Notes: generated from the sequence alone by a model not told the origin. A stretch of DNA of 64,000 nucleotides from a virus (IMGVR_UViG_3300037722_000409:1-64000), one strand, 5' to 3'. Numbered from the stretch's first letter, positions 5,381 to 26,151 are shown. Made by a program: numbers and translations.

Positions 5381-6676
5381 ATGACAGTATTAGAATACCC
5401 GCTGAGCCCAAAATATATCCCCAATTGGACTATCGGTGAGGCTCTCCGAGAGCTCATCGCCAACGCCTTCGACATCGACGCCGCTCCCGACATTCGGTGG
5501 GAAAACGGCGCCGCCATAATAACCGACAATGGCCCTGGTATCCTCCGGTCTTTCTGGGTGATTGGTGAGGGTAACCACGGTGAGATTGGCCAGTTCGGTG
5601 AGGGTCTCAAGATGGCTATGCTGGTCCTGGCACGAGACGGCCGGTCCGCCTCCGTGACTACAGCAGGATACTCGGTAACCCCTGGCCTGTCCTACTCAGA
5701 GACCTATGGTTCAAAGGTTCTGACACTGACCAGCGAACCTAACGTCAGAGACAGGGGGACTGTGGTGCGCGTGGTCTGCACTAAAGCTGAGTTCAAAAGC
5801 GCCCACGACAGGTTCTTGAAGCTTCGTCCACGCCGCATGGCCCACAAAGAGTTGGGCATGCTAAAGGACGGGGGTCAACTCTATATAAATGGGGTCTACG
5901 CCTCAAAGCTGCCGGCGTTCTGGGGCTACAACATAACCGACAAGACCATGGCCAACAGAGACCGCACGGTACTGGACATGGGTGGGGTAAAGCGGCACAT
6001 CACTACCATGCTACTGAAAGTAGACAGCACGGCCATGATCACCGCGTTATTGAACGATCTGATCGTGCACCGAGAGACTCGAGGCGAACTGGCTGAGCAC
6101 AATGTGTACGGTAGGCCAGAGTACCCCAAAGTTTGGAAGGCGGCGTTTCGAAAAGTATTTGGGTTGAAGGCGTGCCTCAGTGGGGGACTGCAGGCGGACA
6201 ATTACATGCTGGACCTGGGATACACCGTTATCGGGTCTGGCACGTTGGGGTACTCACTCGCCTACTGCTTCTCGTCCTCAGGAGTTGAGACCTCTGACGA
6301 CTTGATCTCAACGATGAACAAAGACCTCAAATTCGACGTCATCGACGACCAGCTGACCCCGGAGGAAATGGACCGGTTAGACTTGGCCATTAGCACCGCC
6401 AAGCACCACACCCCGCGTTCAGACGTGCAGGAGACTCACGTAGTGGCAGCCTTTCCTAAATTTTTAGAAGTTGGCTGCAACGGTGTGTACTACAAAAAGG
6501 TGGCTTATATCAGCCGTGAGGTTCTCAACGGTGAGTGGGAAACTTTGCTGGGGGTCATGATACACGAGAGGATACATGGTGAGGGCTACGATGACGTGTC
6601 CCGAGACTTCGAGAACCGTATGACCGAGCTGATCGGGGTGTTGGCCGCCCATGGTGCTCCGCGTCCCAACAATTAG
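5381..6676 (+). CDS. GHKL/HATPase-fold ATPase with C-terminal HExxH zincin-like motif
   Basis: LRELIANAFD, DNGPG, IGQFGEGLK, GT.V motifs; HERIH near the C terminus. Confidence 0.7.
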   Translation: MTVLEYPLSPKYIPNWTIGEALRELIANAFDIDAAPDIRWENGAAIITDNGPGILRSFWVIGEGNHGEIGQFGEGLKMAMLVLARDGRSASVTTAGYSVTPGLSYSETYGSKVLTLTSEPNVRDRGTVVRVVCTKAEFKSAHDRFLKLRPRRMAHKELGMLKDGGQLYINGVYASKLPAFWGYNITDKTMANRDRTVLDMGGVKRHITTMLLKVDSTAMITALLNDLIVHRETRGELAEHNVYGRPEYPKVWKAAFRKVFGLKACLSGGLQADNYMLDLGYTVIGSGTLGYSLAYCFSSSGVETSDDLISTMNKDLKFDVIDDQLTPEEMDRLDLAISTAKHHTPRSDVQETHVVAAFPKFLEVGCNGVYYKKVAYISREVLNGEWETLLGVMIHERIHGEGYDDVSRDFENRMTELIGVLAAHGAPRPNN

Positions 6677-6717
6677 ACGGAGTACAATGTAAGGTTGGAT
6701 TAACGCGGAGGAAGCCC

Positions 6718-7083
6718 ATGACCATAGACTTGCACCTGAACCCGCTGGGAGAAAAGTTGGGTCCTTGCCCGTGCTGCCACGAGGCCAAGATCAAGACCTT
6801 CGGCCCTGAGACCAAGGGCCTCTCTAAGGCTTTTAAGGAGGGAGAACCCTTCTACCTCAAGCTCAAGAAAGAGACGCTATACGTCGACCGTTCAGGCCTC
6901 GCCTTTGCGGTCGACCCGGAGACCGGGTTCTACAAGACCCCACGGGGCTACGCAAAGAACCTGGTCGACCCCGGCACCGTTCCCCTCAAGCTGCGTGGGG
7001 GCCCCAAGACCACGAAGACCAAGAAGCTCAAGCTAACCCGGGTCAAGAGAATAAAGCGGCCACTGAAGACCAAGGAGGCCTAA
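6718..7083 (+). CDS. Hypothetical basic protein
   Basis: ORF with GGAGG RBS and upstream GAGTACAAT. Confidence 0.65.
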   Translation: MTIDLHLNPLGEKLGPCPCCHEAKIKTFGPETKGLSKAFKEGEPFYLKLKKETLYVDRSGLAFAVDPETGFYKTPRGYAKNLVDPGTVPLKLRGGPKTTKTKKLKLTRVKRIKRPLKTKEA

Positions 7084-7084
7084 A

Positions 7085-7558
7085 ATGGCATTGACGCCAG
7101 AAGAACTCCAAGAATACCAGAGTGAGCTGAACCAACTTGCGGACGAATGGACACTCGGTAACGACACGGTGTCTCAGGTCAAGGCACGTGAGGGAGCCAT
7201 CCGCAAGCGCATCATGACCATCGCCGATAAGTTCAACCCCTCACAACGGGTGGTCATGCAGGTGCCTGAGCTAAATCTGCAGTGGGACCGTCAGATCGCC
7301 AAGAAGGCTGGCACGGGTGACGTGAGCCTCGACCAGCTCGAGCGGATCCTGGGTCCCAAGAAGTTTCAAACCTTGTGCACCACCAGGACGGTGGCCTACA
7401 CCTTCGACATGGAGAAGTTTCTCGCCGCTCGTGCGTCTGGCGAGATCACGGACTCGGTGATAGCCGCAAGCACCGTGCCACAGGAATACACCTTCCGCCT
7501 AGCCCTCAGCAAGATCCCCAAGGTGGCGGTGGTCGAGGAAGACATCGAGGACGAGTAA
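7085..7558 (+). CDS. Hypothetical protein (coiled-coil N terminus)
   Basis: ORF with AAGGAGG RBS. Confidence 0.65.
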   Translation: MALTPEELQEYQSELNQLADEWTLGNDTVSQVKAREGAIRKRIMTIADKFNPSQRVVMQVPELNLQWDRQIAKKAGTGDVSLDQLERILGPKKFQTLCTTRTVAYTFDMEKFLAARASGEITDSVIAASTVPQEYTFRLALSKIPKVAVVEEDIEDE

Positions 7559-7571
7559 TCTGGAGAAGAAT

Positions 7572-8540
7572 ATGACGGTATTCACGGTATACACGGACGG
7601 GGCCACTCGCCCCACAAACCCAGGACCCTCTGGCTACGGCGCCGTTCTCTACGACGACGGAAAGCTGATCACCAAAGAGGGCGGATACCTCGGCGAGCTG
7701 TACTCTAACAATCAAGCTGAGTACGCGGGAATGCTGGCGGGCCTCCGCCTCGCCACCATGTTTCTGCACGCCAACGTCAAGGAGGTGATCATTCGAGCGG
7801 ACAGCTTGTTGGTCATCAACCAGATAATGGGAGTGTGGGCTTTGCGGGTGGCTAAGCTAGGCCCCTTGCACGCGGCTGCCGTGAAGGCCTTGTCTGACCT
7901 GCAGAAGTTAACACCGGTAAGACTGGAGCACGTGCGTGGCCACAAAGGGGAAGAGGGAAATGAGGCGGCTGACGCCCTGGCCGGCTTCGCTGTCGAGCAG
8001 CACCTTCCCGCCAGCCCCATGGTGATGAAGTTCGTCGAGCAGTCACGCGACAAGATCACCATCGTAAAGAAGGGACACGAGAAGCTAGAGGACCTCGTGC
8101 GTAGCACCTTTGGGGTACAAAGTTTTAAGCCGCTCCTTACCACTGACCAGAGGGCTGTGTTGAATCAACAAAAGGACGCGACCAGCGAGCTTGTGCTTCA
8201 GTTTCCACAGTTGATTATAGCCAAGGATGGTACAACGCACCTGTTGCTATTGGCCACTGGCTTTAAGATGCTGGCGCACCCCACCGATCCCCCACGCGCG
8301 GTGCGCACCATGGACCTCTCAGCGTTTAACACGGCGAAAAGACTGGCCTCCGCGGGGTATCAGATCTTGGTCGCCCACCGCCCCCACTCTAAAGACCGGT
8401 GGATGACGGACGTCGATCTTGGGTGGGGCGTAACTGGCGCTCCCGTGCCGCTAAAGATAGCATCCATAGACACCCTGAGCAACGGTAAGATCTTCGACAA
8501 AGATGGTTGGCCACCGTTTGTCCAAGTCAACGGTTTCTGA
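7572..8540 (+). CDS. rnhA: Ribonuclease HI domain plus unknown C-terminal domain
   Basis: YTDGA..NPGPSGYG, SNNQAEY, DSLLVINQ, HVRGHKG..GNEAADALA. Confidence 0.85.
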   Translation: MTVFTVYTDGATRPTNPGPSGYGAVLYDDGKLITKEGGYLGELYSNNQAEYAGMLAGLRLATMFLHANVKEVIIRADSLLVINQIMGVWALRVAKLGPLHAAAVKALSDLQKLTPVRLEHVRGHKGEEGNEAADALAGFAVEQHLPASPMVMKFVEQSRDKITIVKKGHEKLEDLVRSTFGVQSFKPLLTTDQRAVLNQQKDATSELVLQFPQLIIAKDGTTHLLLLATGFKMLAHPTDPPRAVRTMDLSAFNTAKRLASAGYQILVAHRPHSKDRWMTDVDLGWGVTGAPVPLKIASIDTLSNGKIFDKDGWPPFVQVNGF

Positions 8541-8559
8541 AAGACGAGTAGAATAAGCT

Positions 8560-9198
8560 ATGCCACTTAAGATCTCAAAATTGGTGAGCAAGATGACCCC
8601 GGCAGAACTGACCGAGTATCTGGTTCAGCACGCCGCCAAGGGTCCGTATACCCGCACCACCATAATGAAGGCGCCTCTTACTCGTGGGTTGAAGCGTCTT
8701 CTAGAGGGGTACGACAACAATCGGTACACCGTCGCTCTGATCATAGACCGCCTTCTCGAGGTTGGGTGGCCTGGGTCAGAGCGCGGGATCTCAGAGAGCA
8801 TGGTGACCATCGGGGTGTTTGACTACGCACTCCGCGATATGGGCGGAAGCCAGCAACCTTGGAAATACCTGTACTTTCGACGCTTTAGAGAGACTCTCGA
8901 AGAGCGTGAGTACTTCACCCACTACCTCGGCGTGTTGGAGGACTGTCAGGTTAGACTACTTGGCAGTCAGCCAGCAAGCTACCCAGAGGTGACTTGGCAG
9001 AGCAAGGAACGTGAGGCGCTAAAGTGCCTTGAGAATGCCGCCACGGTCATCGAGGAGAGACTAGACGCACAGGGAACCCTAACCGAGTGGCCCGTGCTCC
9101 CCGCTCGCCATATTGACGAGAGCTTGCACAGCTTTATACACGACCCAAAGCGCAGTAGCCTACTGCCCTCAAGGAGGGACGATGTTAGCACCCGCTGA
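8560..9198 (+). CDS. Hypothetical protein (possible helicase-loader partner)
   Basis: ORF directly upstream of DnaB; ATG 5 nt after GAGTAGAAT. Confidence 0.55.
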   Translation: MPLKISKLVSKMTPAELTEYLVQHAAKGPYTRTTIMKAPLTRGLKRLLEGYDNNRYTVALIIDRLLEVGWPGSERGISESMVTIGVFDYALRDMGGSQQPWKYLYFRRFRETLEEREYFTHYLGVLEDCQVRLLGSQPASYPEVTWQSKEREALKCLENAATVIEERLDAQGTLTEWPVLPARHIDESLHSFIHDPKRSSLLPSRRDDVSTR

Positions 9199-11645: not shown

Positions 11646-11967
11646 AGAGAGCCTGAGAAACGACATGGACGTTCCAGAAGACGCGACTGACGGGCGCGTG
11701 ATACGCTTGGAGGTAACCGTTGATGGGCACCCTGAGAAGAGGGTCATCCTCGCCATGTGGCTCAAGTACGGCGAAGAAGACGTCTTTGAGAGCTTTAAAG
11801 CCGACCTGGCATCTCAGTACGCCAATGACGGGTACGCCGTCCTCTATCGTGAGGTGGCTCAGGCTGAGTTCGACTACGTACAGGCGGTGACAGCCTTGAC
11901 AACGTTTCCAACCTGGAACGAGCTGGTAAAGGCGAAGATGCTAAAGCCCATGGTGCACAGAAACTGA
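11638..11967 (+). CDS. Hypothetical protein
   Basis: ORF overlapping the primase stop. Confidence 0.6.
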   Translation: MSEESLRNDMDVPEDATDGRVIRLEVTVDGHPEKRVILAMWLKYGEEDVFESFKADLASQYANDGYAVLYREVAQAEFDYVQAVTALTTFPTWNELVKAKMLKPMVHRN

Positions 11968-18949: not shown

Positions 18950-19473
18950 CCACAAGCTCTGAGTCTCTCCAAGAACCCCAACAGACGGTGTGGGACCGTA
19001 TAATCACCCAAGCCCGGCAACGCTTGGTGAGCGTCGGCTATCCGATTCCCGTTAAGCCCAAGACCCCGATAAACGACCTTCAGCTTCCCGAAGACGTCGA
19101 GGCCTTGAATCCTATACAGCTGGCCAACCTACTCATGCGGTTGCAAGCGTGGTACGCCTACAGCACCGCCCAGCTGGCCTTCGCCAGGGCGGAGCTTCAC
19201 GCCTTCGACGAGTACTTCTCGATCGAGCTTGGTGACAAGATGAACTCCCTCGCCTCCCTGACTGAGGGACGCCCCACCAAAGACGTGTTGAAAGCACTGG
19301 CTCTCAAGACCACCGCGGTTGGGGCCATGTTTACCCGCAAGCTCGGGTTGGAACAACGAGCGGAGCTCATTGAAGGAATGGTTCAGAGCCTCAGCATCCA
19401 GTGCAAGGCCCTGACCACGGAGCAAATTCGACGACACGCCGCACAAAAATTAAGTCACGGAGAGAGCTTCTAA
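18946..19473 (+). CDS. Helical protein, possible UvsY-like recombination mediator
   Basis: Coiled-coil ORF after RecA and nucleases; inference from context. Confidence 0.4.
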   Translation: MTTSSESLQEPQQTVWDRIITQARQRLVSVGYPIPVKPKTPINDLQLPEDVEALNPIQLANLLMRLQAWYAYSTAQLAFARAELHAFDEYFSIELGDKMNSLASLTEGRPTKDVLKALALKTTAVGAMFTRKLGLEQRAELIEGMVQSLSIQCKALTTEQIRRHAAQKLSHGESF

Positions 19474-20555
19474 TGGCAAGAACAGCACTAGGATGCCACA
19501 TCTATTCTGGCGGCTTTACTATCGGCATGGAGAAGAACTTCGAGATCATCGGACAGTTGGAAGAGGGCCCGTGGGGCGCCAAGACGTTTGACCTGAACTA
19601 CCCCAGTGTGCCACACCCACTCAATAAGGCCGAGTGGGACATTCCAAACTACAAGAACTTTGTCAACGTCGTCTACGCCAATCCCCCTTGCGCGTGCTGG
19701 AGCGCCATCGGTGCCCGGCTTGGAAAGGCTGACCCACGCCTCCAGTTTACCTACAACTCCGCTAACCTGGCCTTGGCGGTAGAGCCCCAGTTTTTCGTGG
19801 TGGAAAGCGTGTGCCGCGCCTGGACTGCTGGTCGTGAGGTGTACGAAGAGATAGCTGAGCAGTTTCGGCAGAAGGGATACGCGATCACGTTCTTGCTGAC
19901 CAACGGTATACTGCACGGGTCGCCGCAGTCACGAGAGAGGTTTCACCTCATCGCCCACAAGTACGCCTTACCCTTAGAAACACCAGCGATGCCCGCACAC
20001 ATGCCCACGGTAATGGAGCTCATCGGCGACCTGGCCGGCACACACGCTTGGCTTGGTGAAGGAGCTTCTTCTGCACTGAACCACGTGGTACGGCGTCCGA
20101 CCGACATGGAGGTGGAAGTCTACAAGCGACTTACCGCTAGCGGCAACTACAGCAAGATCGTGGAGGAGCTCAATGCCGCTGGTGTCCCGGCACGTAAAGG
20201 ACGATTGTTAAACGGCCGATTGTACGCCGACGCGTACTCTCGGACACTCGTTGACTTGGGCTGCGTGATTCACCCGACCGAGAACCGCTTGATTACCCTT
20301 CGTGAGGGCGCCCGCTTGTGCACCTACCCAGACACCTTTGAGTTCGCAAGCGACTCTAAGAACCGTGAGTTTGGCGTGGCAGCCACTGATGTTACCCAGG
20401 CGGTGATGCCTGCCATGGGAGCTTTCTTCAGCGACTTGTTTGCACAGGCCATGGACAACGAGGCTCCCGCCTCAGGTACCCAAGAGATCGACTGGCGGTC
20501 CATAGCACGTCCGTTCACCCCAGGCCGGTACGCTCGAACTATGGGGTGGCGCTAA
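19473..20555 (+). CDS. Divergent C5-cytosine DNA methyltransferase-like protein
   Basis: Motif I IYSGGF, IV NPPC, VI ESV (normally ENV), [34 protein letters not shown]. Confidence 0.8.
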
Positions 20556-20613
20556 AAGGTGTCCCCCCAAAACTGGGTATAATAGAACTAACAGCATATT
20601 TGGAGGTCAGGCA

Positions 20614-21681
20614 TTGAGTAAAATACGCGTAGCAATTGTTGGGGTTGGTAATTGCGCGTCCTCACTGGTTCAGGGTATCTACAAGTACCAGGGCATCGCA
20701 GACGACACCCATGTCCCCGGCGTGATGCACAACAAGATCGGGTCCTATCGGATAAGCGACATAGAGATAGTGGCAGCGTTCGACGTCAACGAAACGAAGG
20801 TGGGAAAAGACGTCTCGACGGCCATCTACGCCGAGCCCAACAACACCTTGCGGTTCTTCGATGTCCCCTTCATGGGCGTCACAGTCCAGAAGGGCGAGGT
20901 AAACGACGGCATCGGCCAGTACCTTGAAGAGGTGATCACCATCTCTAAGGAGAAGCCAGTAGACGTGGCCCAGGTCCTCCAAGAGCGAGCGGTCGACGTA
21001 TTGATCAACTATCTGCCGGTCGGCAGTGAGAAGGCGACCGTTCACTACATCTTGGCCGCGCTTGAGTCCCACGTCGCCGTGGTGAACTGCATCCCAGTCT
21101 TCATCGCCAACAATCCTGAATGGAACGACGTCTTTATTCAGGCGGGAGTGCCCATCGTTGGTGACGACATCAAGTCTCAGGTCGGGGCGACCATCGTGCA
21201 CCGGGTACTGGCCAACCTGTTCGGTGACCGCGGCGTGGACATCGACAAGACCTTCCAGCTGAACTTTGGGGGAAATACCGACTTCCTGAACATGCTGGAA
21301 CGTGAGCGCTTAAAGTCAAAGAAGATCTCTAAGACCCAGGCGGTCACCTCGCAGATTCAGCACGACATAAAGGCCAATCAAGTGCACGTGGGACCCAGCG
21401 ACTTCGTGCCTTGGCTGAAGGACGAGAAGTGGTGCGAGATCTACATGAACGGAGAGCTGTTCGGTGGAGCGCCCATGTCGGTCGAGGTCAAACTGAAGGT
21501 GCATGACAGTCCCAACTCCGCTGGTGTTGTGGTGGACGCCGTACGGTGCGCTAAATTGGCCCTTGACCGCGGTATTGGTGGGTCAGTGACCGCCGCCAGC
21601 GCCTTCTTCATGAAGTCACCCAACATCCAGTACACGGACAGTGAAGCCAAGACGATGTTGGAGGAGTTCATCCGTGGGTAG
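20614..21681 (+). CDS. ino1: myo-inositol-1-phosphate synthase
   Basis: [66 protein letters not shown]. Confidence 0.97.
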
Positions 21682-22306
21682 AGCAGTTATCTTCGACCTC
21701 GATGGAACTCTGGCCGACAGCATGGAGGCGTACGGGCAGTACGCCTCTACTCTTATGGCCGACACGTACAGCATCTCTTTGACAAGCGCCCTGCGCGGGT
21801 ACTTTGCGACCGCGGGAATGCCCTTCGGGGATCAACTTCAAGCGTTGTTTCCGAATCACCCCTCCAACAGGTTGGTGGCGCGGTCTTTCGCCGAGTTCAA
21901 AGAGGACTATCAAGACGCTATACACCTCTACGACGATGCCATAGCCGCGTGCAGGACGCTCAAAGACTGCGGATACGGCGTGGCGGTGTGTAGCAGCACT
22001 GATGTACCCTTGGTTCTGCACCTGCTAAAGACCAGGGGGATTCTTTCCCTGATTGATAACATCAGCGGTCAAGACGCGCGCAATCTCTCGAAGCTTCAAC
22101 GGCTGCAAGCCTTGGTTGAGCTCTTCAAGGGCCCCGTCACGTTTGTCGGTGACACGGTGTACGACGCTGACGTGGCTAAGCGCGCCAACATCAATTTTGT
22201 AGGAGTCACGCACACCATTGACGGCCAGAGCTTCGCGGCGCTAAACGTTCCGTTTGCCGCCACCTTGACCGCCGTCGTGCAGAGGATAGTGAAGCATGGA
22301 AATTAA
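21674..22306 (+). CDS. HAD-superfamily phosphatase
   Basis: [21 protein letters not shown]; GTG start overlapping the ino1 stop. Confidence 0.9.
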
Positions 22307-23270
22307 CCACAACACGATGTTCACGGAGTTCTGCCGGTTAGAGCTGAGCACAGGCGGGCCAGACCCTCAGGTAGAGATAATCGCCCAAGCTGGGCAGGGG
22401 GAACAAGAGAAGGGGTGGCTTGCTGGATGCTTTATAGGACCCTACACCGTCGGAGCCGCCGCAGCCCTCAACGCCGGGACCACTCGCGCGAAGGTTCTGC
22501 AGGACCCAGCTGGCCTTACAACGTGGATCGGTCGTAACTGGGCAGGCTTGCCGATACGTCGTGAACGGCGAGCGGTCTGGAAGATAGAGAAGCTCTCCGA
22601 GTGCCTACACAGCTACGCCGTGTGGTCGGAGTATACCCTTCCCGGCCTGATTTACGCCTCCTTTGACACGGTCTGGGACTCTCTCGATAAAGAGGTACGG
22701 TACGTCGGGCGGTACGCCTCGATGAAGCTGATAGAGGTGCTGTACCGCCAGAACTTGCTGCAAAACGCGCGGCAAGACAGCATCGTGCCTGACGGAGCGT
22801 GGAGCCCGCGCAAGACTCTTGGTCTTTTGCACCCGGAGGACGTAGCTGAGTTCCCAGGCTTGCTGACCGGCAACAGCGTCGCTACACTGCAGCGTGTCAA
22901 CGAGGTGGCCAACACACGACGGCTTACCTTGAACAAGGACCTGAACACGACGGTGTCTTTCTTCGACTACGAGACGATGCTCTGCAACTACCGACAAGCC
23001 CTGAAGGGAAAGTACCCAGGCCGGTCTCACGACCGTGAGCTGGCCTACTACATCAAGGCGTTCTCAGTCTCTAGTCAGCGCGACGACTCCTTCCCGTTCG
23101 CCAAGATACGGCGAGAGCGGTTCAATAACCACTGCCTGGGGGAGCTAAACGGGTGGGGTGGAGCGCGCAAAGAGCTCGAGACCATCTTTGACGACCATGG
23201 GTACTTCTGGTGCGACACCGTTTTCGACTACAAGAATACCGCGGACTTTGCCAACCCCGTACGATGGTAA
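22296..23270 (+). CDS. DNA-base transferase, aGPT-PPlase2 / amino acid:DNA transferase family (HhH glycosylase-like fold)
   Basis: GGPDP, LPIRRERR, VGRYASMKLIEVL, ETMLCNYR...GKYPGRSHD, LGELNGWGGARKE; context with P-loop kinase and TS homologue. Confidence 0.75.
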   Translation: MEINHNTMFTEFCRLELSTGGPDPQVEIIAQAGQGEQEKGWLAGCFIGPYTVGAAAALNAGTTRAKVLQDPAGLTTWIGRNWAGLPIRRERRAVWKIEKLSECLHSYAVWSEYTLPGLIYASFDTVWDSLDKEVRYVGRYASMKLIEVLYRQNLLQNARQDSIVPDGAWSPRKTLGLLHPEDVAEFPGLLTGNSVATLQRVNEVANTRRLTLNKDLNTTVSFFDYETMLCNYRQALKGKYPGRSHDRELAYYIKAFSVSSQRDDSFPFAKIRRERFNNHCLGELNGWGGARKELETIFDDHGYFWCDTVFDYKNTADFANPVRW

Positions 23271-23298
23271 GCCCGAGTATAATAGACAGAGGTGGTAA

Positions 23299-23721
23299 AT
23301 GAAGGTCTACACCGTTATTGAAGATCAGTTGTTTATGCGGCCCGAGTTCCACAAGCTGAAGAACAAGATCGTTGATCTTCAAGCCCTGAAGATAGACACG
23401 GTGTTCTGCATGCTTCAACGTGGCGACGCAGACCTGCCCGGCGTGGTCGAGTACATTCACCGCCCACTTCCTGACGGCAAGACCATCGATATTCCCTACG
23501 TCTACTCTATAGTGGACGAGGTCGAGAACTGCCTGTCTCAAGGAAAGCGCGTCCTGGTCCACTGCATCGCCGGCAAGAACCGCTCAGGGCTAATCTGCGC
23601 CTTGACTGTTCGTCGAGCGCTAGGGTTATCTGGCGCTGCAGCTGTCGCCCACGTACGCCACTGCCGACCCGGGGCTCTCACCAATCCCTATTTCGTCGAG
23701 TACCTAGAGAAACTTTTATAG
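23299..23721 (+). CDS. Cys-based (PTP/dual-specificity) phosphatase
   Basis: PLPD, HCIAGKNRS (CX5R), VRHCRPGALTNPYF. Confidence 0.9.
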   Translation: MKVYTVIEDQLFMRPEFHKLKNKIVDLQALKIDTVFCMLQRGDADLPGVVEYIHRPLPDGKTIDIPYVYSIVDEVENCLSQGKRVLVHCIAGKNRSGLICALTVRRALGLSGAAAVAHVRHCRPGALTNPYFVEYLEKLL

Positions 23722-23732
23722 AGAGGGGGCTT

Positions 23733-24293
23733 ATGCTTATTAACGTGCGTGGAACTAATGGTAGCGGAAAGTCTACCGCGGTACGCTATCTTCTGGACAC
23801 CTACGGCAACACCAACAAGATCGAGCAAGAGGGGTGGCGCAAGACCAGCGCCTCCGTCGTAGGATACAGACTGCCAGGCAACTTGATCATCGCCGGCCGC
23901 TACGAGTACTTTCAGATGGGCGGACTGGACGGCTTCAAGTACGCCAAGATGTGGGAGGAACTGCTGCCCGCTCTGGCGGCCGAGGCGGACCACTTGGTCT
24001 TTGAGAGCATCCTCATCTCCGGAAACGTCGGGCGTGGGAAGGCTCTGGCCGCGCAGTTTCCCTGCACCTTCGCCTTCATGGACACCACCGCTGACGAGTG
24101 CATCCGGCGCATATACGCCCGCAACGGCGGGGCCGAGTTCAAGGAAAAGCTGGTGCGAGACACTCACGGGCGCATGCAGGTGATCAAGCGCAACTTCACG
24201 GCTCAAGGCGAGCTGGTAACCGAGATCCACGACGGGCCTGGTCTAGAGGCGCTGCTTCGTCAGAACGGGTGGAACCCGTCTACTGGAGTATAA
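23733..24293 (+). CDS. P-loop kinase, 5-hydroxymethylpyrimidine DNA kinase-like
   Basis: INVRGTNGSGKST, GRYE...GGLDG, VFESILIS, ECIRRIYARNG. Confidence 0.7.
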   Translation: MLINVRGTNGSGKSTAVRYLLDTYGNTNKIEQEGWRKTSASVVGYRLPGNLIIAGRYEYFQMGGLDGFKYAKMWEELLPALAAEADHLVFESILISGNVGRGKALAAQFPCTFAFMDTTADECIRRIYARNGGAEFKEKLVRDTHGRMQVIKRNFTAQGELVTEIHDGPGLEALLRQNGWNPSTGV

Positions 24294-24299
24294 TAGCTT

Positions 24300-25244
24300 A
24301 TGTGGATACTTCTTGAAGGCGCTGACGGAGTTGGTAAGTCAACCCTTGCACGTAACCTTTGCAGCCAGCATGGATACGACTACCTGCACTTCGGGGTTCC
24401 AGACAGTCACCCTATCGACTACTGGATGCGTGAGGGGCTTGAGGCAGCTCGGGACAACCACGTCATCGACCGGCTCCACCTGAGCGAGGAAGCCTACGGA
24501 CAGGTATATCGTGGCGGGTCCAAGCTCACCGAGCACCAGTTTTGGCTCTTGGAAGGGTGGCTTTGGGCGCGCAACACCATCTTGGTACTGTGCACCACCT
24601 CCTGGGAGAACATGCGTGAGAACCAGACCAAGGTCAAGGGCGTGTACCACGACGAGCGCCAGAAGCAGATCGTGAGCGAGTTTACGAAGCTGATAACTCG
24701 CACCTCCCTTCCCCTGTGTATCTATAACTACACTCACCATAACGGAGTGCTTCCCCCAGCGCGGGTGGTTATCAGCCCCCTCACTGGTCATGACGCCAGC
24801 TACACCCTATATGACGCCTTGCACCGTCGTGACTCAGCGGTAGATTTTAACGACGCCGGAATCGGCTCTGTTCAACCAAGGGTGTGGCTAGTGGGCGACC
24901 AGCCCAACCCGAAACGAGAGGCCCCTGTCACCGCCTTGTTTCAACCCCCGTTCCAGAGTTCCAGCGGAGAGTATCTACGAAAAGCTGTAGACTCACCGTA
25001 CTTTTGGTCAGACCATCACGTAAGCAACTCCCGCGACGTAGAGGGTCAGCCTTACGACCTCCCAGTAACGTGGGAGCGTCTTGGGCGCCCAAGTATCGTG
25101 GCTCTTGGCAATAACTCAGCCAAGGCCTTAACGGCCGCCAAGCTGCCCTACAACAAGGTGCCCCACCCGCAGTGGTGGCGCCGATTCCAGCACAACAATA
25201 CGGAGGGATACCGCAGTGCAATTGAACACGCATCTCGAAGCTGA
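24300..25244 (+). CDS. dNMP kinase fused to a UDG-superfamily-like domain
   Basis: LEGADGVGKST, IDRLHLSE.AYG; C-terminal LVGDQP..PF..SSG.YL...IVALGN...PHPQW. Confidence 0.75.
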   Translation: MWILLEGADGVGKSTLARNLCSQHGYDYLHFGVPDSHPIDYWMREGLEAARDNHVIDRLHLSEEAYGQVYRGGSKLTEHQFWLLEGWLWARNTILVLCTTSWENMRENQTKVKGVYHDERQKQIVSEFTKLITRTSLPLCIYNYTHHNGVLPPARVVISPLTGHDASYTLYDALHRRDSAVDFNDAGIGSVQPRVWLVGDQPNPKREAPVTALFQPPFQSSSGEYLRKAVDSPYFWSDHHVSNSRDVEGQPYDLPVTWERLGRPSIVALGNNSAKALTAAKLPYNKVPHPQWWRRFQHNNTEGYRSAIEHASRS

Positions 25245-26151
25245 CCACATGGACGAGCTATACCCTATGATCCTCGAGTATATTCTCGAGCACGGTGACA
25301 TGGTCAGTCCCCGTGGGTTACTTACCAGAGAGGTCCGGCCCCTGTCGTTCACCTTGACCAACCCGCTGAACCGGGCTGTCACCTTGAAAGAGCGCAAGAT
25401 GAACCATGCGTTCGGCTTGATCGAGGCGCTCCAGTTTACCAGTGGAACCACCAACGGCGCCCAGCAGATACGGTACAACAGCAACATCAAGAACTGGGTA
25501 GACCCGATATCTGGCGAGATCGAGGCAGCGTACGGGGTCTTAACAGCCCCTCAAGTTCCGTACGTGATCGAGACTCTGACCAAAGACCCTGACAGCCGCC
25601 AGGCGATCCTTTCAATCTACAACGGACAGTTACACCAGCGCCCGATGTTGAACGTCCCGTGCACCTGCACCTTGCAGTTCTTCCTGAGACAAGGAGCCCT
25701 CGAGCTGGTCGTGTACATGCGGTCGAACGACGTTTGGTGGGGTACCCCCTACGACGTGTTCCAGTTCACCGCCATGCAAGAGATGATCGCCTGCGCTCTT
25801 GGCGCACGGCTGGGTAAATACACTCACACCGCCGGCAGCTCCCACGTCTACGAGCCGTTCTTTGAGAGCGCGGCCACCTTGATACATAACCATGGCGTGC
25901 GTGATCAAGCGGCGCAGAGTTTCATTGGCCAAGACCCCCTGTTCCCGACCACGAAGACTTCTCTAGTTGTGCTTCGCAACAGTGCCCGGGCCGTACTGGT
26001 TGCTGAGGTCATAGTGCACGGGTCACAGCGCGAACGAGACCACGTGTTAACCACCTGGAACGACAACACTACTGTGTGCGCGGATCCATTTAACGCGCAC
26101 ATAAAGACCCTCTGCGAGTACCAAGACAGCAAAATTATACGGAGGAAATAA
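25216..26151 (+). CDS. Thymidylate synthase-family enzyme, probable dCMP hydroxymethylase
   Basis: DPDSRQA, VPCT, MRSND, GTPYD (Asp at the Asn177-equivalent position), GSSHVYE. Confidence 0.8.
   Translation: MQLNTHLEADHMDELYPMILEYILEHGDMVSPRGLLTREVRPLSFTLTNPLNRAVTLKERKMNHAFGLIEALQFTSGTTNGAQQIRYNSNIKNWVDPISGEIEAAYGVLTAPQVPYVIETLTKDPDSRQAILSIYNGQLHQRPMLNVPCTCTLQFFLRQGALELVVYMRSNDVWWGTPYDVFQFTAMQEMIACALGARLGKYTHTAGSSHVYEPFFESAATLIHNHGVRDQAAQSFIGQDPLFPTTKTSLVVLRNSARAVLVAEVIVHGSQRERDHVLTTWNDNTTVCADPFNAHIKTLCEYQDSKIIRRK

Follow-up and report, generated by a model that had tools for sequence, protein, structure and literature searches.

An inositol-phosphate synthase gene within a candidate kinase/transferase pathway for pyrimidine hypermodification in the DNA of an uncultured phage

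The groups known to decorate hypermodified pyrimidines are sugars, amino acids or polyamines. The closest described counterparts of the locus analysed here, those of phages PaMx11 (gp46/PUGT-gp49-gp51), M6 (gp51/gp54) and ViI (gp247), are built around a backbone of a transferase, tailoring genes, a P-loop DNA kinase and a hydroxymethylase of the thymidylate synthase (TS) family. Attack on C6 of the base followed by expulsion of phosphate has been shown for two of the transferases, PaMx11 gp46 and ViI gp247 (PMC11472151, PMC8989533). The former is a 5-phosphomethyl-dU glycinyltransferase in which Cys247 is the nucleophile on C6, Glu243 and Thr244 reach a metal at O4, and Trp146, Lys150 and Asp24 have been assigned to the bound glycine (PMC11472151). 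In ViI gp247, a serine hydroxyl can be the nucleophile, and the accompanying metagenomic survey of thymidine hypermodification neither uses the word inositol nor includes a phosphatase among the pathway enzymes (PMC8989533). Here we describe a gene cluster of an uncultured phage, IMGVR_UViG_3300037722_000409, which follows the same backbone order but in which the supply gene encodes myo-inositol-1-phosphate synthase (Ino1), rather than amino-acid tailoring enzymes such as a pyridoxal phosphate (PLP) decarboxylase, an FAD oxidase or an acetyltransferase. The IMG/VR record is 92,321 bp long and is rated 100% complete by CheckV; its bases 1-64000 constitute the stretch of 64,000 nucleotides analysed here, hereafter the window.

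The cluster occupies 19.4-26.2 kb of the window. A preliminary description, made from the sequence alone, had named eight genes in it, and searches against Pfam, NCBIfam and PHROG together with two structure models recovered all eight, co-directional and tightly packed. The features are as follows.

19473..20555, + strand: C5-cytosine methyltransferase-like gene (PF00145 at 9e-29, 101 bits; alternative GTG start at 19401)
20574..20583, + strand: extended -10 promoter-like motif TGGGTATAAT, followed by the ribosome-binding site GGAGGT (20602) and the Ino1 start codon TTG (20614)
20614..21681, + strand: Ino1, myo-inositol-1-phosphate (inositol-3-phosphate) synthase, TTG start (PF01658 at 6e-36)
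21674(21641)..22306, + strand: HAD-IA type phosphatase (HAD_2 at 9e-18; DLDGT motif)
22296..23270, + strand: AADT/aGPT-Pplase2-like DNA transferase of a distinct Tyr140 clade (PF18724; gp46/PUGT fold)
23277..23285, + strand: -10-like motif GTATAATAG, ahead of the dual-specificity phosphatase gene
23299..23721, + strand: CX5R dual-specificity-type phosphatase (DSPc PF00782 at 3e-10, 40.5 bits vs. a cut-off of 33.5; HCIAGKNRS)
23733..24293, + strand: P-loop DNA base kinase of the 5-hydroxymethyldeoxyuridine (5-hmdU) DNA kinase family (PF18748, HMUDK_HMUD1, at 2e-10)
24300..25244, + strand: fusion of a TMPK/YorR-like nucleotide kinase with a family-4 uracil-DNA glycosylase (UDG)-like domain (314 residues; AlphaFold2 pLDDT 90.7)
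25216..26151, + strand: TS-family pyrimidine hydroxymethylase, predicted to be of the cytosine type (PF00303 at 2e-26)

We consider it very likely that this cluster encodes a pyrimidine hypermodification pathway of the kinase/AADT type, and likely that Ino1 functions in it. The best overall explanation, in which our confidence is evenly divided, is a post-replicative kinase/AADT pathway into which a phage inositol-phosphate synthase has been recruited.

By its sequence, the Ino1 of the window is a canonical myo-inositol-1-phosphate synthase (MIPS). Like the cellular enzymes (M. tuberculosis 1GR0 and those of Chloroflexota), to which it is 62-67% identical, it is a full-length protein with all catalytic motifs: the match to 1GR0 spans the entire length (1e-132), identity to the Ino1 of SAR202/Dehalococcoidia is 64-67%, and the NAD-binding and catalytic Lys/Asp motifs are kept (GVGNCAS, GDDIKSQ, SKKISK and DSPNSAG). 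It differs from them in being phage-encoded, in being translationally coupled to a DNA transferase and in remaining below the NCBIfam equivalog cut-off (499.8 bits vs. 638 for TIGR03450, a model specific to mycothiol-making actinobacteria). The coupling, already suspected in the preliminary description, is real, with the stop codon of Ino1 overlapping the GTG start of the HAD gene at 21674, and the HAD stop and the transferase ATG overlapping by 11 nucleotides. Identity as an Ari2-type five-membered cyclitol synthase was considered and rejected (210 bits vs. 446 bits for canonical MIPS). An Ino1 with 78% identity (P0115) is among the nearest protein matches, and the catalytic MIPS motifs are kept in all 24 distinct full-length viral copies; two long homologues (P0113 and P0114) that could be read as Ino1-phosphatase fusions proved to owe their lengths to internal duplications of Ino1. 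In an Ino1 tree that sampled few cellular phyla, and is too narrow for counting acquisitions, all transferase-linked viral copies group with the Chloroflexota enzymes and stand apart from the copies of phages Moby, Cr30 and RP13.

The expectation that ino1 accompanies the transferase in related viruses was borne out by a survey of gene neighbourhoods. With a transferase profile, we found 51 IMG/VR loci, 77 loci in metagenomes of groundwater, soil, sediment and ocean, and one named genome. An alignment profile was needed, as searches of viral contigs with only the transferase sequence or only that of Ino1 gave no match; megablast of the cluster against phage records gave none either, and the searched collections contain no close relatives of the cluster. 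The transferases, clustered at 90% identity, formed 85 lineages, of which only those with enough upstream sequence were counted (64 for Ino1, scored within 3.5 kb upstream of the transferase). Ino1 lies upstream on the same strand in 29 of these 64 lineages (45%), and within the IMG/VR set it is found directly upstream, on the same strand and with 53-61% identity, in 16 of the 51 loci. Against the general phage background, where tblastn with the window Ino1 detected the gene in 19 of 50,697 phage records belonging to three lineages, this represents an approximately thousand-fold enrichment. Ino1-positive lineages are present in both deep clades of the transferase tree, separated by branch lengths of more than one substitution per site and set among different flanking genes, and the position and strand of Ino1 are kept across lineages that share only 31-49% transferase identity. 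Ino1 and the transferase are genuinely linked, by an association that is either ancient or has arisen repeatedly and that far exceeds chance.

Ino1 is at the same time optional in this transferase clade. The slot upstream of the transferase is occupied, in various combinations, by Ino1, a HAD phosphatase, a radical-SAM/SPASM enzyme or an FkbM-type methyltransferase, the latter mostly together with Ino1 (seven lineages vs. two, p=0.07). The radical-SAM/SPASM neighbour was considered as a glycine isomerase of the M6 type, a reading that was rejected as the protein is without a relative in M6-like phages. Among named genomes, the cluster was found in just one, a Dehalococcoidia metagenome-assembled genome (MAG), which has no Ino1 at the cluster and an Ino1 of its own on another contig; the simplest reconciliation is that phages lacking Ino1 use the inositol phosphate of the host. 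The cluster-bearing contig of this MAG (L055, CBDEUI010000003.1, 216 kb) encodes two tandem HMUDK-type kinases and has the C5-methyltransferase-like gene directly upstream of the transferase. At another locus (L051, G011:C1:41342-41932), a very divergent MIPS-like open reading frame (ORF; 27% identity, 454-amino-acid frame) is located about 9 kb upstream of the transferase.

Ino1 also neighbours DNA-modification genes in cultured phages. In the T4-like Caulobacter phage Cr30 (KF301602.1, locus 5732-9179), a strong AADT (AGS81008; PF18724, 1e-52), of another subfamily than the window transferase, is encoded two genes upstream of Ino1. The product of the intervening gene (AGS81007) weakly resembles a TET-associated glycosyltransferase, and the TS-family gene of Cr30 looks like a canonical ThyA (373 bits); PF18748 was not found in this phage by a search route so insensitive that it missed the window genome's own PF18724 gene, and this negative carries no weight. 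In Stenotrophomonas phage Moby (MN095772.1, 28187-33601), Ino1 is part of a 7-deazaguanine cluster composed of FolE, Ino1, a 123-amino-acid ORF, QueC, a DpdA-type TGT and QueE, which is a second kind of DNA-modification pathway enclosing an Ino1. In the T4-like phages Moby and RP13, Ino1 is found in plastic genome regions. The proposal that Ino1 feeds the kinase/transferase pair thus stands as far as gene neighbourhood is concerned, both upstream of the window-type transferases and beside the AADT of Cr30, but not as a general requirement, the gene being dispensable in more than half of the lineages.

The transferase itself was identified by two routes. A hidden Markov model (HMM) search of 22296-23270, suggested in the preliminary description, returned PF18724 at 29.0 bits vs. 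a cut-off of 26.2 (E=1e-6), and a precomputed PF18724 match is present on many of the homologues. An AlphaFold (AF2) model based on 51 homologues (pLDDT 95.9) has 8Z2N/8Z2M, the structures of PaMx11 gp46/PUGT, as its best three PDB matches in Foldseek (probability 1.00, TM 0.55-0.63), at about 16% identity and with E-values of only 5e-3 to 4e-2. The modelled protein has the all-alpha two-bundle fold of gp46; the transferase profile found no match among PDB sequences, gp46 being found by the fold search only. Profile alignment with hhalign, of low probability (6.7%) but with a residue pairing that agrees with the fold match, superimposes E226-T227-M-L-C230 of the window protein on E243-T244-I-L-C247 of gp46, and K144 on K150, so that the catalytic Cys, the Glu-Thr pair and the Lys are shared. 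By contrast, Trp146 of gp46, which contacts the glycine carboxylate, corresponds to Tyr140, and Pro145 to Arg139. All 63 lineage representatives have Tyr140; Arg139, C230, R88, D246, R272, E283 and R291 are likewise clade-invariant, and K144 is invariant or nearly so. By analogy, the chemistry is very probably that of gp46, in which the enzyme acts covalently at C6, phosphate leaves and a nucleophile adds onto the exocyclic methylene, whereas the predicted nucleophile pocket is unlike that of the glycine enzyme. No transferase residues were found to co-vary with the presence of Ino1, and positions 226/227 (E/Q, T/V), considered as trackers of cytosine vs. uracil, followed no clean rule.

The constant partner of this transferase clade is the CX5R phosphatase, which is encoded behind the transferase in 69 of 76 assessable lineages (91%) and in all 27 assessable Ino1-positive ones. 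The window protein has a PLPDG motif in addition to HCIAGKNRS, and D59, C89 and R95, that is, the general-acid Asp and the HC-x5-R loop, are invariant in 24 homologues. Natural fusions carry the phosphatase at the C-terminus of the transferase (P0009, P0019 and L046/L047), in L046/L047 directly behind Ino1. This near-constancy sets the clade apart from PaMx11, the experimentally characterised cluster of which has no such phosphatase annotated. Four loci without a CX5R phosphatase (L040, L050, L053 and L054) encode in that position a weak HD-domain protein and a 250-amino-acid protein that matches no Pfam family; non-orthologous genes may here have taken over the phosphohydrolase step. The HAD phosphatase shows no comparable constancy as a companion of Ino1: it is present in only five of the 29 Ino1-positive lineages, and in the remaining 24 there is no cluster phosphatase other than the CX5R enzyme. 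The HAD protein of the window, with its DLDGT nucleophile motif eight residues past the GTG start at 21674, resembles phosphoglycolate phosphatase, PpaX and beta-PGM. An extra phosphatase fits an incoming group that bears a phosphate; as Ino1 yields a phosphate ester, inositol-1-phosphate or inositol is the favoured donor.

Which base would receive this group is suggested by the remaining genes. The predicted DNA kinase at 23733-24293 was recovered by HMM search with PF18748 (40.7 bits vs. a cut-off of 27) and is 31% identical to the characterised kinase PaMx11 gp49 (E=6e-16). The gene for the HMUDK helical domain (PF18723) is present in relatives with an Asn-type hydroxymethylase, but tblastn with 21 PF18723 proteins detected no counterpart in the window. 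TS-family enzymes distinguish the two pyrimidines by the residue equivalent to Asn177 of E. coli ThyA: Asn is selective for uracil, and Asp, found in T4 gp42 and MilA, for cytosine. The TS homologue of the window has Asp there (GTPYDVFQF aligned to ...PFNIASY) and keeps the catalytic Cys, and the nearest enzyme of solved structure is the CMP 5-hydroxymethylase MilA (3e-25); PaMx11 gp51 and most relatives have Asn. The hydroxymethylases of related loci are of two types, and this division matches the deep split of the transferase tree into two clades. Clade B, the majority, combines an Asn-type hydroxymethylase with a separate PF18723 '5-hmdU DNA kinase helical domain' gene, whereas clade A, which includes the window and the Dehalococcoidia MAG locus, has an Asp-type TS homologue, always a C5-methyltransferase-like gene and no helical-domain gene.

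The C5-methyltransferase-like family, characterised by NPPC[S/A] and ESV, is confined to the transferase clade with the Asp-type TS and is found at none of the clade B loci. In the window, its ATG at 19473 overlaps the stop codon of the preceding ORF (TAATG), and the protein matches M.HaeIII at 3e-11; of the canonical motifs I (FxGxG), IV (PCQ), VI (ENV), VIII (QxRxR) and X (GN), it retains PC, the Glu and QxRxR (QSRER), with IYSGG as motif I, PCA as motif IV, ENV changed to ESV and GNAV to TQAV. Because the Asp-type TS homologue travels together with this special C5-methyltransferase-like gene, the target base in this phage is probably 5-hydroxymethylcytosine (5hmC). The arrangement recalls the synthesis of 5hmC in T4 (gp42 dCMP hydroxymethylase and gp1 dNMP kinase), in that an Asp-type hydroxymethylase is likewise combined with a dedicated dNMP kinase, and a polyol-like group would likewise end on the 5-CH2-O position. 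Unlike in T4, neither a glycosyltransferase nor a dCTPase was found in the window phage, and attachment would proceed by phosphorylation and displacement, so that the cyclitol would be joined through an ether and not through a glycosidic bond.

The putative dNMP kinase is the N-terminal half of the kinase-UDG fusion, which has 23 full-length homologues. In the structure model, this half matches 2AXP/3KB2 (YorR/TMPK/deoxynucleoside kinases), and the C-terminal half matches the T. maritima UDG 1L9G, 1VK2 and UdgX (probability 1.0, E ~1e-5). Canonical family-4 UDGs have GE[AG]PG as motif A, HPSPL as motif B and Fe-S cysteines; the motifs of the fusion protein are non-canonical (LVGDQPN and PHPQWWRRF), and there is no conserved Cys quartet in the homologue alignment. 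A separate observation concerns the TS homologue of one related locus (L007:1523-3517), a protein of 664 amino acids with an insertion of about 300 amino acids directly past the catalytic Pro-Cys; the insertion, which begins with CLAGDT and ends with VLAHNC, looks like an intein with a homing-endonuclease block.

Almost all genes of the window are on the + strand. The cluster is preceded by a replication module (Toprim primase, DnaB-like helicase, family-A DNA polymerase, endonuclease VII, RecA and a Cas4-like nuclease) and followed by a GroES-like gene and structural genes (portal, MuF). Outside the Ino1-HAD-AADT junctions, its genes overlap or are separated by 6-28 nucleotides. The preliminary description had placed ino1, the HAD gene and the transferase behind a single promoter motif; the motif at 20574 is real, but the cluster has three promoter-like motifs. 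The class TG[GA]GTATAAT is over-represented in the window, with eight + strand copies (at 11965, 17680, 20574, 38217, 39101, 47956, 53190 and 57959) vs. 1.2 expected and none of 100 shuffles containing as many, and is probably the phage's own promoter class; TGGGTATAAT would, by its consensus, act as a promoter. The longer core GTATAATAG occurs five times on the + strand of the window vs. 0.11 expected, and one copy, at 24288, precedes the kinase-UDG gene. No terminator-like sites were found on the + strand inside the cluster. Elsewhere in the genome, a Pfam sweep of 62 further ORFs identified a circularly permuted YpsA SLOG-domain protein (7e-32), an RlaP nucleotidyltransferase (2e-23), a second GroES-like Cpn10, RusA and a Lar-like restriction-alleviation protein.

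These components can be assembled into a candidate pathway. The Asp-type TS homologue would produce 5-hydroxymethyl-dCMP, which the TMPK-like kinase would help to raise to the triphosphate for incorporation by the phage family-A DNA polymerase. The kinase of the 5-HMUDK family would then phosphorylate the hydroxymethyl group in DNA, and the AADT-like enzyme, with Cys230 on C6, would expel the phosphate and place a hydroxyl nucleophile onto the exocyclic methylene. This nucleophile would be either free inositol or 1L-myo-inositol-1-phosphate, which Ino1 forms from glucose-6-phosphate. Stripping of the inositol phosphate, on the DNA adduct or beforehand, would fall to the CX5R phosphatase, possibly with a contribution of the HAD phosphatase in this phage. 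The product would be an inositol ether of 5hmC, or of 5-hydroxymethyluracil (5hmU) in the Asn-type relatives, shielding the DNA from host nucleases. An ether of this kind has chemical precedent, because a serine hydroxyl is the nucleophile in ViI gp247 (PMC8989533). Gene identities, folds, conserved catalytic residues and the Ino1-transferase-phosphatase gene order are established here; for the inositol ether as the product, gene context and homology lead us to an even chance. The most specific version, in which inositol-1-phosphate is the nucleophile, the ether is formed on the 5-hydroxymethyl group (of cytosine here, of uracil in the Asn-type relatives) and dephosphorylation by the CX5R enzyme takes place on DNA, is put forward more tentatively.

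Several points weigh against this scheme. The adduct is predicted wholly from gene context and homology, and the PF18724 score of the transferase is barely over the threshold. Ino1 is absent from 55% of the assessable lineages, among them a complete 82-kb relative with terminal repeats; moreover, lineages with and without Ino1 do not differ in the putative pocket residues. These last observations favour a different reading, whereby the transferase clade uses another host-supplied, possibly phosphorylated nucleophile (a sugar phosphate, glycerol phosphate or phosphoserine) that is trimmed by the CX5R phosphatase, and Ino1 has a different pathway-linked role or modulates the pools of glucose-6-phosphate and inositol during infection. 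That the slot upstream of the transferase also takes a HAD, a radical-SAM/SPASM enzyme or a methyltransferase points in the same direction. We nevertheless regard this alternative as unlikely, given that it leaves unexplained why an intact MIPS is found at the 5' side of the transferase in 29 deep lineages, and coupled to it here, as well as why Ino1 stands beside an unrelated AADT in Cr30, and that no cluster gene makes another candidate nucleophile. Also to be weighed is the closeness of the window Ino1 to the cellular Chloroflexota enzymes (64-67% identity, as compared with 53-61% to other viral copies), closeness to a cellular enzyme being the common look of auxiliary metabolic genes. Together with the dispensability of Ino1 in many relatives and its location in plastic regions of Moby and RP13, this would suit an ordinary auxiliary gene for inositol lipids, mycothiol-type thiols or osmolytes, unlinked to DNA modification and merely located in an early/middle nucleotide-metabolism region. 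Such a gene would hardly be expected to keep its position and strand beside transferases that share as little as 31-49% identity and have different flanks, to be joined by stop/start overlaps to the next two genes or to be enriched about a thousand-fold over the phage background, and we consider this explanation very unlikely.

Within the inositol-based pathway, the identity of the base is a separate question. To our knowledge, neither a DNA kinase acting on 5hmC nor an AADT acting on a cytosine derivative has been described; the kinase and transferase families have been characterised only on 5-hmdU, the window transferase keeps the Glu-Thr pair that contacts the thymine O4 in gp46, and most related lineages have an Asn-type (dUMP) hydroxymethylase. 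A thymine-type base (5hmU) modified by the same pathway in this phage is accordingly possible, although we do not consider it probable: the TS specificity position holds Asp, the best solved relative is a CMP hydroxymethylase, and in the Asp-type clade the special C5-methyltransferase-like gene is always present and the HMUDK helical-domain gene absent. The Pfam sweep of the 62 further ORFs contained no dCTPase, dUTPase, MazG or deaminase. Lack of a deaminase counts against 5hmU, and because neither a dCTPase nor a deaminase was found, full replacement of cytosine is doubtful even if 5hmC is the modified base.

The earlier remark that no inositol-modified DNA base is known agrees with full-text literature searches, which found none in the library covered. 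If the proposed pathway operates, a cyclitol ether would represent a new chemical class of natural DNA modification and the first cyclitol-modified nucleobase, and the cluster would provide the first kinase/AADT route on cytosine. The kinase/AADT logic would thereby come to include a phosphorylated polyol as donor, a phosphatase acting on DNA and, probably, 5hmC as substrate. An inositol ether would be isobaric with a hexose and resistant to glycosidases, such that hexose-oriented screens could miss or misread it, and the enzymes of the cluster could serve in labelling 5hmC or 5hmU in DNA. Such a modification would be widespread in viruses of soil, groundwater and marine habitats, probably those of Chloroflexota and other inositol-making hosts.

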